Of a stretch of 32,000 bases of DNA, positions 2,051-6,449 are shown one piece after another. Within the stretch, counting starts at the first letter, position 1. The number at the start of each line of letters is the position of its first letter. Origin of the DNA: an uncultured Nitrososphaerota archaeon (GTDB lineage Archaea > Korarchaeota > Korarchaeia > Korarchaeales > Korarchaeaceae); assembly GCA_964480775.1 (NCBI GenBank), contig CAYZRF010000010.1, positions 30,001-62,000 of the forward strand, read 5' to 3'. The notes under the pieces are model-generated. The model ran no database searches. It was not told the DNA's origin and worked only from the letters and a program-made list of their open reading frames with translations. A program made the translations under genes and the position numbers.

Positions 2051-3478
2051 ATGCGCTCGTCAATCCCCTTGGCCTCTGAAGAAAAATGGCTTGAAGAACT
2101 CGAAAGCTTTGTTTCAGAGGTCATCGATAGAACCTCTGATTATGTTTGGATCAGAAAAGATGATAGATTGCTTATCTTAAGACCAAACACGGTTCATTTC
2201 TTAAATAAAACTGCTGCCGAGATCTTGGACCTCCTCTACTCTGGTTCAACCCTTAAGGATGTAGTTAGAAGGGTAGCCAACGAGTACGGAGTAAAGGAAA
2301 AGGTGGTGGCAGAAGACATTAGAAACCTCCTCAAAACACTTCTTGCTATATTAAAGAGACAATATAGCCCGATTGCAACCCCGAATCTCAGGAAGACTAG
2401 TTTTGGGGAGCATAAAATAGTTTACCCTGTGCTTTCTGAGATAGCATTAACTTACAGATGCCAAAACAGGTGCGTTTTCTGTTACGCGAGCTCACCAAGA
2501 GTGACAAACGAGCTTAGCACTGATCAATTCAAGAAGATAATTTGGAAAATATTTTACGAAGCTAAATGTCCAACCCTAAGCTTTACGGGCGGAGAACCCA
2601 CCCTCAGGGAAGATCTTCCTGAGTTAATAGAGTACGCAAAATCTCTTGGTGAGAACAAAAAGAGAATGAGAGTTAACCTGATAACAAACGGTATAAGATG
2701 TGCCAGAAGTGATTACGTAAGTGTTTTGGCAAAAGCTGGTCTTGACTCCGCTCAAGTAAGCCTTGAGGCTGGGTCTCCACAGATACATGATGTTATAACT
2801 GGAAACAGAGGTTCCTTCGAGAAGACGGTAAAGAGTGTGAAGAACTTGAGGGAAGCTGGCATCCATGTACACACAAACACGACCATATGCGCAATAAATC
2901 AAGATCACGTCAAGGAACTGGTTGATTTCTTGGTTGATGAACTAGAAAGCGAATACTTCAGCGCAAACATGGTTATAAGGACTGGTACTGCTCTTAGTAA
3001 CGATGTGGGTTTAACGTATACCGAGATGGCAGAACTCTTGCCTGAGATAATAGATTATTCAAGAGAGAGGGGCATAAAATTCGTCTGGTATTCTCCTATT
3101 CCCTACTGCATATTCAATCCAGTAGCACATGGGCTTGGATCCAAATCTTGTGCTGCTTGCCATGGTCTCCTCTCTATTTCTCCAGAAGGGGAAGTTTTGC
3201 CATGCAGTTCATTCTCTAAAGGGGTTGGAAACTTGTTAGAGCAAAAATTTGAAGAAATTTGGTTTAGCAGGGTTGCAAAGTATTGGAGGGAAAAGAAGTT
3301 TGTTCCTCCTCCCTGTAAGGGATGCGAGCTTGTCGAAATTTGCTCGGGTGCTTGTCCTTTGTATTGGGATTCTGCTGGAAGTTTTGAGGAGATAAGCGGG
3401 AAGAACTCACATTTCCGCTACTTAGTTTGGAAGATGGAAAGAAGGTTATTTGGAAAGGTGTTTGGAGTTGGCAAGTAG
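2051..3478 (+). CDS. Radical SAM / SPASM-domain enzyme with an N-terminal PqqD-like (RiPP recognition element) domain; putative peptide/protein-modifying maturase
   Basis: CxxxCxxC AdoMet cluster motif CQNRCVFC (nt 2459-2482). GGEPTL motif. SPASM signature GEVLPC ... CKGCELVEICSGAC (CX2CX5CX3C, nt 3314-3355). Residues ~40-100 (LLILRPNTVHFLNKTAAEILDLLYSGSTLKDVVRRVANEYGV..AEDIRNLLKTL) match the PqqD/RRE winged-helix pattern. Confidence 0.88.
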   Translation: MRSSIPLASEEKWLEELESFVSEVIDRTSDYVWIRKDDRLLILRPNTVHFLNKTAAEILDLLYSGSTLKDVVRRVANEYGVKEKVVAEDIRNLLKTLLAILKRQYSPIATPNLRKTSFGEHKIVYPVLSEIALTYRCQNRCVFCYASSPRVTNELSTDQFKKIIWKIFYEAKCPTLSFTGGEPTLREDLPELIEYAKSLGENKKRMRVNLITNGIRCARSDYVSVLAKAGLDSAQVSLEAGSPQIHDVITGNRGSFEKTVKSVKNLREAGIHVHTNTTICAINQDHVKELVDFLVDELESEYFSANMVIRTGTALSNDVGLTYTEMAELLPEIIDYSRERGIKFVWYSPIPYCIFNPVAHGLGSKSCAACHGLLSISPEGEVLPCSSFSKGVGNLLEQKFEEIWFSRVAKYWREKKFVPPPCKGCELVEICSGACPLYWDSAGSFEEISGKNSHFRYLVWKMERRLFGKVFGVGK

Positions 3479-4673: not shown

Positions 4674-6449
4674 GTGAAAAGGGTCTTTTCAGCTGCTCTG
4701 GCTTTTGTATTTCTATCTTTAGTGGTTATCTCTGGAGTTGTTTATCAGGTATCTTGCCAAGAAGTTACGATTGAGAAGATCATGGTTTGGGTTGTCTTGA
4801 AGTCTGACGGCACAATGGAGGTCGAATACAATCTTACTTTCCTAGAACATAGTTCTCGGGATAGAATAAGGAAGTTAGGCCCTTTTGAAGAAGGCCACAG
4901 CATAAAGAGCGCTTTCATAGTTCACGATTCAGATGTTCGTGCAGTAGAACTCTCTGAGATTGAAGATGGGCTCTACTCCGTGTTATTTGGTTATAAAACT
5001 ACGTCTGGAGAGCAGTACACTGTGAGCATTAAGTACAGCATAGATAGGCCGGTAGTAACAGAGCAAGAGATGTTCGGGGAGCCATACTCTATATTCGCCT
5101 GGGCTCCTTTCCAATGGAGTTTACCTGTGAATAACGAGACTGTCATGATAGTGATGCCAGTTGAACTTCCTTCAGATGTAACTAAGCCTGAGCAAATAAC
5201 TCAAGAGCTTATAGACTCCTTAGGAATAGGCTATGGAGATCTCACTGATTACAGGTGGTCATTCTATCCGACTGTTGATGAGACCACTGGTAAGAGCTGG
5301 CTTTCCATCTACTTATCTAAAACCAGCTTGGAGCCATACTATCACTTTGTGATTGAACTCTACATTCCAAGCAAGTACTTCACTTTAGGTCCCTCTCCAA
5401 CATTTCCGCCCCCAGTATCCCCGACAGTAACGCCTCCTGGTTTGATTGCCTCGTACGGCTGGGTAATAATAGCAATATCGGCTCTCATAATGTTTGGATC
5501 CTTTCTTGCGTATGTAAGAGGAAGAGAAAGGAGAAGAAGGGTTCCAAGATATGAAGCACCAGAGATAGAGATAGAAACCTTCGAAGTTCCCGAGAAAGTT
5601 GCAGATCTTGACCCTGCAGAGGCAGCCATGCTCGTATCGTCTGCTGATAAAGTCATAGCTCTTATAGCTCTTAGCTTGATGGAAAGGGGCATCATACAGA
5701 TGACTTCGGTTAAACCACCAAAATATTCGATTAATGACCGAGAATTGGAGAAGAGAAGAAAAGAGCTGAAGAAATACGAGTTAAAGTTCATAGAAGCCAT
5801 TAGAGATGATGGTTCAATTGATGAAGAGGAACTCAGATTGATTTTGAAGGAGGTTGCATACAGCCTTAACGAAAAGGCGTGGGATGCAGATATAGAGAAA
5901 ACTAGAGAGAGATACAAGGAACTAGTTGAAGAAAAATGGAAAGAGCTTGAGGATCGACCTAGGGCTCAAGAAAAAGTTGATTACTGGAATGATAACTGGC
6001 CTTGGCTTATAATTCACACAAATTCGCATAGAAGAGCTAGAGACGTTTTCGTACCAACAACCCCAGGAGAAAAAGTTAGAATAAAACCAAAGCCCGACAG
6101 GAGACCTTTTCCAGTAGTGACCCCCGTTGAGAGAGGTGCGAGAACAATCGTGGTCGGGATAGAAGACTTCGCCAATAGGGTAGTTAGCACAATAGAATCC
6201 ATAAGCAAGAACGTTGTTGAGGGTCTAGAGAAGGTCGCTGAAAAAACGGTCGAATCGGTTGAAAAGGCTGGAGTAAAAGAAGCTTGTTACTCGGCATGTG
6301 TAGAACATGATGCTTGTCATTCCGCATGTGTTCACGATGCTTGCCACAGTGCGTGCGTTCACGACGCTTGTCATTCGGCTTGCCACAGTGCCTGTCACTC
6401 TGCGTGTCATTCAGCTTGTCACTCTGCCTGTGTGTCAGGCTTTGAGTGA
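4674..6449 (+). CDS. Bitopic membrane protein, DUF2207-like, with a cytoplasmic C-terminal Cys/His (Ala-Cys-x-x)n repeat tail
   Basis: GTG start with an N-terminal signal/anchor ([20 protein letters not shown]). Ecto-domain opens [17 protein letters not shown], as in DUF2207 N-termini. Pro-rich linker [17 protein letters not shown]. TM segment [25 protein letters not shown], followed by RGRERRRR (positive-inside). [30 protein letters not shown] resembles the DUF2207 cytoplasmic motif. The C-terminus is [55 protein letters not shown]. Confidence 0.75.
   Translation: [591 protein letters not shown]
6282..6446 (+). repeat. In-frame coding tandem repeat: two 27-nt units (D-ACHS-ACVH) followed by five 12-nt units (ACHS), flanked by degenerate AC units
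   Basis: Read directly from the sequence: gct tgt cat tcg / gct tgc cac agt / gcc tgt cac tct / gcg tgt cat tca / gct tgt cac tct. The peptide units are identical but use different synonymous codons, including both TCN and AGY serine codons. Confidence 0.9.

Follow-up and report, generated by a model that had tools for sequence, protein, structure and literature searches.

The 32,000-nucleotide stretch of Korarchaeota DNA analysed here (the window; contig CAYZRF010000010.1, positions 30,001 to 62,000) carries a plus-strand unit of three genes, encoding a radical S-adenosylmethionine (SAM) enzyme of the SPASM type with a fused recognition element for peptides that are made on ribosomes and modified after translation (RiPPs), a long-helix protein predicted to be coiled coil, and a single-pass membrane protein ending in a repeat rich in cysteine and histidine. 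Comparative sequence analysis suggests that these genes form a widespread and so far uncurated RiPP-type system, in which the 'core peptide' of the radical SAM/SPASM maturase would be the hyper-conserved tail of the membrane protein. An original prediction, made from the letters of the window without database searches, had already proposed a protein-borne substrate of this kind.

The first gene (positions 2051-3478, plus strand) encodes a protein of 475 residues in which three Pfam domains exceed their cut-offs: a PqqD-like RiPP recognition element (RRE) at residues 42-98 (positions 2174-2344; PF05402, 38.8 bits versus a cut-off of 23.4), a radical SAM core at residues 133-294 (positions 2447-2932; PF04055, 106.8 versus 29.5 bits) and a SPASM auxiliary-cluster region (positions 3107-3355; PF13186, 38.9 versus 21.5 bits, with the Pfam match at residues 370-426). 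Among 22 homologues, all three cysteines of the radical SAM cluster motif C137-x3-C141-x2-C144 are invariant, as are all seven SPASM cysteines, namely C353 and those of the motifs C367-x12-G-x4-C385 and C422-x2-C425-x5-C431-x3-C435, and many residues of the RRE region, including R35, D38, R44, P45, N46 and N52. Pfam score and cysteine pattern together place the protein in both the radical SAM superfamily and the SPASM group, and the N-terminal PqqD domain above its cut-off places it among the RRE-fused maturases, in line with the original prediction of a radical SAM/SPASM enzyme carrying a PqqD-like element. The closest solved structures by sequence are those of SkfB, PqqE, SuiB, CteB and a lipid-joining radical SAM enzyme, and the CteB structure 5wgg aligns with residues 45-436 of the window enzyme, that is, from the RRE on. 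The family of the window enzyme forms a clade of its own, whose similarity to characterised enzymes does not exceed about 25-30%.

The proposed substrate lies at the end of the third gene (positions 4674-6449, plus strand; 591 residues), where residues 537-591 (positions 6282-6446) form a Cys/His repeat tail that closes with (ACHS)x5-ACVSGFE and is modelled by AlphaFold2 with a predicted local distance difference test (pLDDT) score below 50. Twelve cysteines and 10 histidines are packed into the last 54 residues, as against a single cysteine in residues 1-535, and a scan of the whole 32-kb window found no other Cys-repeat open reading frame (ORF) of at least 15 residues; that the repeat is confined to the C-terminal end of this protein, and that no small Cys-rich precursor accompanies it, had been noted from the outset. 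Over about 70 loci the order of the repeat units is constant, beginning with YD-(ACHS)x3 and ending with (ACHS)x2-ACV-CHS-(ACHS)x2-ACVS-x-F, and ACHS and ACVHD units follow one another in the same sequence from phylum to phylum. Between the archaeal protein of the window and its bacterial homologues the tail is 86-89% identical, while other 30-residue blocks of the protein reach only 10-45%. The last 18 residues are 88% identical over 2415 pairs, whereas third codon positions at identical residues agree at 47%, and the 12-nt DNA repeat units within the window tail match one another at only 70%, indicating that the repeat is not the outcome of recent slippage. Because the amino acids are conserved while third positions and DNA units diverge, the repeat must be maintained at the protein level, and we conclude from these comparisons that purifying selection preserves the tail as a fixed, hyper-conserved module, which is not drifting low complexity. 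Its identity between Korarchaeota and Chloroflexota is exceptionally high for so short a sequence, which argues for an exacting chemistry or structure.

The pairing of enzyme and tail extends far beyond the window. A scan of one genome per GTDB species yielded 80 homologous loci, with radical SAM enzymes 49-88% identical to that of the window; counts of the membrane gene were limited to loci with at least 2.5 kb of sequence upstream of the radical SAM gene (n = 68), counts of the partner gene to loci with enough downstream sequence (n = 82), and tails were scored by the numbers of Cys and of 'AC' in the last 60 residues. A tail-bearing membrane homologue was present in 58 of the 68 loci from other species, mostly adjoining the radical SAM gene directly, and the coiled-coil partner gene lay downstream of the radical SAM gene in 80 of 82. 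Every membrane homologue whose C-terminus falls inside its contig carries the tail. The original prediction had named the co-occurrence of the enzyme with Cys-repeat proteins and the coiled-coil gene, and the retention of the tail by orthologues of the membrane protein, as its own checks, and both came out in its favour, the latter with no tail-less case among intact C-termini.

The 80 loci come mostly from Chloroflexota, with others in Armatimonadota, Caldisericales, Spirochaetota and three Korarchaeota-like archaea, and the radical SAM enzyme has more than 2000 homologues at E<=1e-20. Its closest relatives (81-88% identity) are encoded in metagenome-assembled genomes of Korarchaeota, where they are annotated just as 'radical SAM protein' and stand in loci with the same three genes and the same flanking genes as the window; the next, at about 55% identity, belong to Chloroflexota (Anaerolineae) and Armatimonadota. 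Gene order differs between the two groups, being membrane-radical SAM-partner in bacteria and radical SAM-partner-membrane in Korarchaeota. In the first bacterial locus examined, a 588-residue Cys-tailed membrane protein is encoded directly upstream of the radical SAM enzyme, which is followed by a 403-residue helical protein and a 163-residue protein with two transmembrane (TM) helices and a zinc ribbon. On this sampling of genomes, the system is mostly bacterial (Chloroflexota), with a few archaeal lineages.

With the tail removed from the query, an exhaustive search for the membrane protein returned 287 relatives at E<=1e-3. A Cys-repeat tail was found in 55 of the 152 relatives that were inspected (the best 150 of the 287 plus two earlier partial homologues), many of the others being fragments. 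Besides the type A tail of the window, these relatives show three other conserved Cys tails, types B, C and D, and classes C and D hold no histidine at all. Context look-ups and a metagenome scan revealed, for types B, C and D, a radical SAM homologue directly beside the membrane gene, 38-41% identical to the window enzyme over nearly the full length, RRE region included, and usually a gene for a two-TM, zinc-ribbon protein just upstream; the long-helix partner is confined to type A. A neighbour-joining tree of the radical SAM enzymes splits exactly by tail class, and since each tail class adjoins its own enzyme clade, enzyme and tail appear to co-diversify. In the same tree, which is rough, the bacterial type A clade encloses the Korarchaeota sequences, suggesting that the Korarchaeota copy was obtained by transfer from bacteria. 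All that the four tail classes have in common is the alternation of cysteine with small residues (Ala, Val, Ser, Gly), so that a chemistry shared by them cannot rely on His or Asp acceptors. Two type C loci also hold, 0.7-1.5 kb downstream of the cognate radical SAM gene, a second and more distant homologue (L091:4796-6190 and L093:11459-12895), which matches the window enzyme at E about 1e-29. Loci L096, L098 and L102 share one tail variant and show no radical SAM gene in the 2-5 kb of downstream sequence at hand, while L107, with the same variant, has one upstream; the sub-class of L096, L098 and L102 may keep its enzyme elsewhere or be without one.

No curated family model reaches its cut-off for this system. 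The best NCBIfam match of the window enzyme is to PqqE (TIGR02109), yet it scores 120.6 bits against a cut-off of 381, and the best 25 of its 90 NCBIfam matches, to PqqE, NirJ2, AhbD, MftC and other SPASM equivalogs, all lie far below their cut-offs. The models for the sactipeptide maturases AlbA (NF012164), SkfB (TIGR04403) and StsB (NF045574) give 90.8, 87.3 and 90.8 bits against 850, 300 and 625, respectively. One suggestion of the original prediction, kinship with the family of ACGX-repeat peptides and their dedicated enzyme, has to be abandoned, as the window enzyme reaches 91.1 bits against a cut-off of 400 with the ACGX system model (TIGR04340), the radical SAM enzymes of the sister classes 63-90 bits, and the NCBIfam search gave no match of the ACGX-repeat model to the tail. 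Neither the window enzyme nor the sister-class enzymes approach any NCBIfam equivalog, and the sister-class membrane proteins and zinc-ribbon proteins had no NCBIfam match.

We derived the anatomy of the membrane protein from hydropathy and an AlphaFold2 model with a mean pLDDT of 78.6. An N-terminal signal or anchor segment precedes a beta-sandwich domain at residues 33-232 (positions 4770-5369; pLDDT >90), predicted to be extracellular, and a TM helix at residues 262-289 (positions 5457-5540) that is followed by the sequence RGRERRRR. Foldseek finds the ectodomain similar, at E about 1e-7, to ribophorin I (an oligosaccharyltransferase subunit) and the N-domain of M1 aminopeptidases, and in the top match the whole architecture recurs, from the luminal sandwich through the TM helix to the cytosolic helices. 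Because RGRERRRR follows the TM helix, the positive-inside rule would place the C-terminal ~300 residues in the cytoplasm; with a signal peptide and one TM helix ahead of it, the tail would lie there alongside the radical SAM enzyme and the partner, neither of which has a signal. Residues 293-304 (positions 5550-5585), just behind the membrane, form a 12-residue motif with PEIEIETFE that is the most conserved non-tail element of the conservation profile. This juxtamembrane motif is conserved as strongly as the tail, is modelled as disordered (pLDDT <50 for residues 294-302), occupies a position at which types B, C and D have class-specific variants (PRIQVSTFR, PLAKVEGVG, PKYQIECMG) and looks like a short linear docking motif for a partner. 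A winged-helix-like and helical domain, predicted cytoplasmic, occupies residues 314-459 (positions 5613-6050; pLDDT >90). Between it and the tail, residues 496-535 (positions 6159-6278) make up an amphipathic segment of ~40 residues, DFANxxV..IExxSxxVVxxxE.., which ends 10-30 residues ahead of the tail and is conserved between tail classes A, C and D, not B; both this pre-tail helix and the tail have low AlphaFold2 confidence and are modelled as flexible. Since the segment is conserved just ahead of the tail, where a recognition sequence is expected, it is a candidate for a leader-like recognition sequence.

The description of the membrane protein as DUF2207-like, offered in the original prediction, holds only marginally. 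Weak matches to both DUF2207 domains do exist, the N-terminal one in the ectodomain (PF09972, 18.8 bits versus 24.4) and DUF2207_C (PF20990, 24.3 versus 33) in the winged-helix-like domain, but both fall below their cut-offs, and at E<=1e-3 just 2-3 of 42 family members match DUF2207. The winged-helix-like domain is likewise the source of a weak match to TIGR04222 (24.9 bits versus a cut-off of 43; E 1.4e-5, residues 268-399), a model matched at the same threshold by 3 of the 42.

Taken together, these observations make it probable, and we hold this with moderate confidence, that the membrane protein offers the RRE a conserved linear docking segment in its cytoplasmic part, that the tail enters the active site, that its cysteines are modified iteratively and that the product stays on the membrane protein. 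In such a pathway the membrane protein would insert so that its beta-sandwich faces outward and its last ~300 residues lie within the cell, and the RRE would dock on a linear cytoplasmic segment, the first candidate being the pre-tail DFAN..IE..S..VV..E helix and the second the juxtamembrane PEIEIETFE. The flexible tail would then thread into the active site of the radical SAM enzyme, which would process 12-14 cysteines iteratively, the likeliest product being a ladder of intramolecular thioether cross-links with a mass change of -2 Da each. Characterised enzymes that combine an RRE with a full SPASM domain and act on Cys-rich substrates mostly make thioethers, as do SkfB, AlbA, CteB, PapB and QhpD; by analogy with SkfB, CteB, PapB and QhpD, thioether cross-linking is our leading guess for the chemistry, albeit a weakly grounded one. 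As the cluster has neither a conserved cytoplasmic protease nor a conserved exporter, the modified tail would remain part of the membrane protein.

The 405-residue product of the second gene (positions 3450-4667, plus strand) is a long-helix protein with a small C-terminal helical domain. Its AlphaFold2 model, built with 6 close relatives, has a pLDDT of 89.1 and contains helices of 57-89 residues (17-73, 77-160, 171-259 and 270-326), and searches of Pfam, PDB sequences and Foldseek found only generic coiled coils as relatives. In bacteria of classes A, C and D a fourth conserved gene, present in 63 of 69 bacterial type A loci and missing from the Korarchaeota loci and the window, encodes the protein with two TM helices, a winged-helix-like middle and a C-terminal zinc ribbon (CPxCG...CPNCG; for example L005:8637-9128, L087:3852-4253 and L093:7163-7576), which matched no family model. 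The long-helix partner probably works in the cytoplasm, as a scaffold for the modified tail or as its effector, and we propose the same for the zinc-ribbon protein. At 33 of 67 bacterial type A loci, the gene for a ~650-residue HExxH metalloprotease with an InhA-like MAM domain (PF20773) begins right at the end of the zinc-ribbon gene (L005:9289-11055 and L013:11186-13195, for instance); the window, tail classes C and D and the other half of the type A loci are without this protease. Its N-terminal signal or lipobox-like segment indicates that it is extracytoplasmic, and the ectodomain of the membrane protein is a possible target. In L005 (307-4234) and about 30 other Anaerolineae loci, genes for a GHMP kinase and for glycosyltransferases of the GT4, GT9 and WecG types directly precede the membrane gene on its upstream side. 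They may be there through lineage synteny or may tie the system to the synthesis of cell-envelope glycans, the latter an intriguing prospect given the ribophorin-like ectodomain.

In linkage, fixed tail and co-diversification, comparative genomics agrees with the proposal of a protein-borne tail as radical SAM substrate, but several points weigh against the pathway we favour. Modification of the tail is an inference from sequence, and the topology of the membrane protein is a predicted one. A segment with 12-14 cysteines and 10-11 histidines would bind metals or Fe-S clusters even if unmodified. Type B has no pre-tail segment, which makes the docking site of the RRE uncertain, and the lack of shared His or Asp acceptors weakens the analogy with enzymes of the PapB and QhpD types. 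Finally, 10 of the 68 loci keep the radical SAM and partner genes with no membrane gene within 8 kb, and no substitute Cys-repeat peptide was found in these ten. It is unlikely, though worth keeping in view, that the enzyme acts on the tail by another chemistry, such as epimerisation of every other residue (YydG/PoyD-like), C-C or C-N cross-linking that involves His (cyclophane-type), oxidation of cysteine to a different functional group or formation of a Cys-derived metal-binding moiety. Cysteine alternating with Ala, Val, Ser or Gly fits no acceptor rule known so far, all curated maturase models stay well short of their cut-offs for a family that stands as a clade apart at about 25-30% similarity or less to characterised enzymes, and repeats of period 2 (CACACA) and period 4 (ACHS) are what a modification recurring at regular intervals would call for; yet comparable characterised enzymes mostly form thioethers, and no sequence feature indicates a specific alternative.

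Alternatively, the tail might go unmodified and have a redox function or bind metals or Fe-S clusters; the radical SAM enzyme would then act on something else, such as the juxtamembrane motif, the partner or an unannotated peptide, or would take the tail as a cluster or scaffold donor. We consider this improbable: a stretch of 54 residues with 12 Cys and 10 His does look metallothionein-like, the PEIEIETFE motif is equally conserved and also disordered, and the ten loci without an adjoining membrane gene retain enzyme and partner, but the radical SAM clades follow tail class, classes C and D lack any histidine, plain metal binding rarely requires a fixed unit order at 86-89% identity across domains of life, and neither the window nor the loci without the membrane gene offer another Cys-rich candidate. 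Release of the tail is less plausible still, and we regard it as very unlikely that the membrane protein serves as a giant leader from which the ~50-residue tail is cleaved after modification, to become, by release or export, a RiPP-like product. Borosins and OphMA do set a precedent for a core attached C-terminally to a large protein, and the HExxH/InhA-like metalloprotease adjoins 33 of 67 bacterial type A loci, but its signal or lipobox-like segment puts it outside the cytoplasm in which the tail is predicted to lie, it is patchy and missing from the window, half of the type A loci and classes C and D, no transporter is conserved, and, unlike a leader, both the ectodomain and the domain on the cytoplasmic side are conserved and fold well. 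A main model with this protease as the tail releaser was rejected, given its signal or lipobox-like N-terminus and its presence at only half of the bacterial loci. That the adjacency is meaningless, a matter of lineage synteny or chance, is effectively ruled out by the linkage at 58 of 68 loci, the linkage in the sister classes and the radical SAM tree that follows tail class; glycosyltransferase and GHMP kinase genes are likewise syntenic upstream in about 30 Anaerolineae loci, but enzyme and tail have stayed paired where gene order changed, where the system passed from one domain of life to another and where it diverged, in metagenomes unrelated to one another, into four tail classes.

In the window, the ORF coordinates (2051-3478, 3450-4667 and 4674-6449, for 475, 405 and 591 residues) agree with the original description of three tightly packed plus-strand genes between minus-strand flanks, which are a beta-CASP RNase gene upstream and the ATPase gene of an ATP-binding cassette (ABC) importer downstream. 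The predicted 29-nt overlap and 6-nt gap were also reproduced: the coiled-coil gene overlaps the radical SAM gene by 29 nt when the first TTG (3450) is taken as its start and by 11 nt with the TTG at 3468, and 6 nt separate it from the membrane gene. In relatives the coiled-coil gene is called from the codon matching TTG 3468, which may be the true start of the 405-residue partner. A TATA-like box, TATATTT (positions 2026-2032, plus strand), read from the sequence 19-25 nt upstream of the radical SAM ATG, is a possible archaeal promoter of a near-leaderless operon transcript. The remaining genes are ordinary chromosomal housekeeping, and no tRNA or Rfam features were found across the window. 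The ABC importer (positions 6482-11114, minus strand) comprises an ATPase with a TOBE_2 domain, a 634-residue permease with two BPD_transp_1 matches and a solute-binding protein; it is convergent with the operon in all Korarchaeota loci, not in bacteria, and is probably unrelated synteny. Further on, positions 12258-15901 of the minus strand encode two adjoining paralogous calcineurin-like metallophosphoesterases of ~600 residues each, and the pair adjoins ORFs of 347 residues (11209-12252) and 210 residues (17228-17860), both without a Pfam family.

Research on RRE-dependent radical SAM/SPASM enzymes has almost exclusively concerned the small secreted peptides that they make, and short precursor ORFs are what mining pipelines seek; as the apparent substrate here is the end of a ~590-residue membrane protein, such pipelines would miss the system. 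Literature searches with tail strings or with DUF2207 and radical SAM found nothing relevant, and the main text of a compendium of 15,000 RRE-radical SAM members makes no mention of such substrates, so that the belief, stated in the original prediction, that the arrangement is undescribed still holds for the literature searched. The nearest published analogue is a proposed pairing, itself unproven, of membrane proteins of the TIGR04222 family with oxidative enzymes that depend on multinuclear non-heme iron (MNIOs; DUF692): the TIGR04222 proteins have unstructured, Cys-containing C-terminal tails, are linked to MNIO genes and are considered 'likely' protein substrates, although one third of the genomes with TIGR04222 Cys-tail genes have no MNIO, and the report does not mention radical SAM, SPASM, DUF2207 or Chloroflexi (PMC12452194, 2025). 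Both systems set a Cys-bearing unstructured C-terminal tail on a membrane protein beside the gene for a Cys-modifying RiPP-type enzyme. They differ in the enzyme, which is an MNIO in one and a radical SAM/SPASM protein with a fused RRE in the other, in the tails, which are Ser/Gly-rich, of low complexity and periplasmic in the former and fixed, hyper-conserved and predicted cytoplasmic in the latter, and in their hosts, Actinomycetota as opposed to Chloroflexota and Korarchaeota. No MNIO/DUF692 (MbnB_TglH_ChrH) gene was present among the called genes of loci L001-L006 or among the scanned ORFs of the window, and in the larger locus sets the radical SAM, coiled-coil and zinc-ribbon proteins were the only conserved partner families found beside the membrane gene.

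Tentatively, and as a possibility that we would not yet call probable, these systems may represent an unrecognised and widespread post-translational modification of bacteria and some archaea, in which a radical SAM enzyme builds a regular Cys-derived structure, either a cross-linked ladder or a new metal-binding array, on the cytoplasmic tail of a ribophorin-like single-pass membrane protein, with at least four co-evolving classes of tail and enzyme, independent recruitment of radical SAM enzymes and MNIOs to related scaffolds, and long-helix and zinc-ribbon proteins that read the tail. If so, the modified tail would be a new membrane-anchored functional element and not a secreted natural product. 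The family is large, with more than 2000 radical SAM homologues and at least 80 species representatives at least 49% identical, crosses phyla and reaches the archaea. It could reveal new radical SAM chemistry on Cys-Ala, Cys-His or Cys-Ser repeats and could give a first function to the poorly understood DUF2207/TIGR04222-like membrane proteins, and pairing with a radical SAM enzyme may explain the third of TIGR04222-type genomes that have no MNIO partner.

Other known systems resemble that of the window in single respects. The ACGX system (TIGR04340) likewise combines an Ala-Cys-x-x repeat substrate with a dedicated radical SAM/SPASM enzyme, but its substrates are small free peptides. DUF2207 proteins such as SMU.243 of Streptococcus mutans (PMC10457818) have a similar layout of signal peptide, beta-rich ectodomain, TM helix, cytoplasmic region and low-complexity C-terminus, and the literature searched contains no link of DUF2207 to radical SAM enzymes. 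PapB, the freyrasin enzyme, installs six thioethers in repeated Cys-X3-Asp motifs (PMC9413430). Like CteB, it is a radical SAM/SPASM enzyme with an N-terminal RRE that works iteratively on repeated Cys motifs, but the substrates of both are free peptides of about 45-50 residues with N-terminal leaders, whereas the candidate substrate here is a membrane-protein tail; moreover, the window enzyme scores far below the cut-off of the NCBIfam PapB model, and the tail classes of the window type have no common acidic acceptor. QhpD forms Cys-Asp/Glu thioethers in QhpC, the gamma subunit of quinohemoprotein amine dehydrogenase, and anSME converts a cysteine of sulfatase to formylglycine. The substrates of these two enzymes are soluble exported enzyme subunits modified at a few specific sites, not repeat-tailed membrane proteins, and the window enzyme has no sequence-level membership in either family, but they share with the system proposed here the principle that a SPASM radical SAM enzyme modifies cysteines of a protein that goes on to act as a functional protein.

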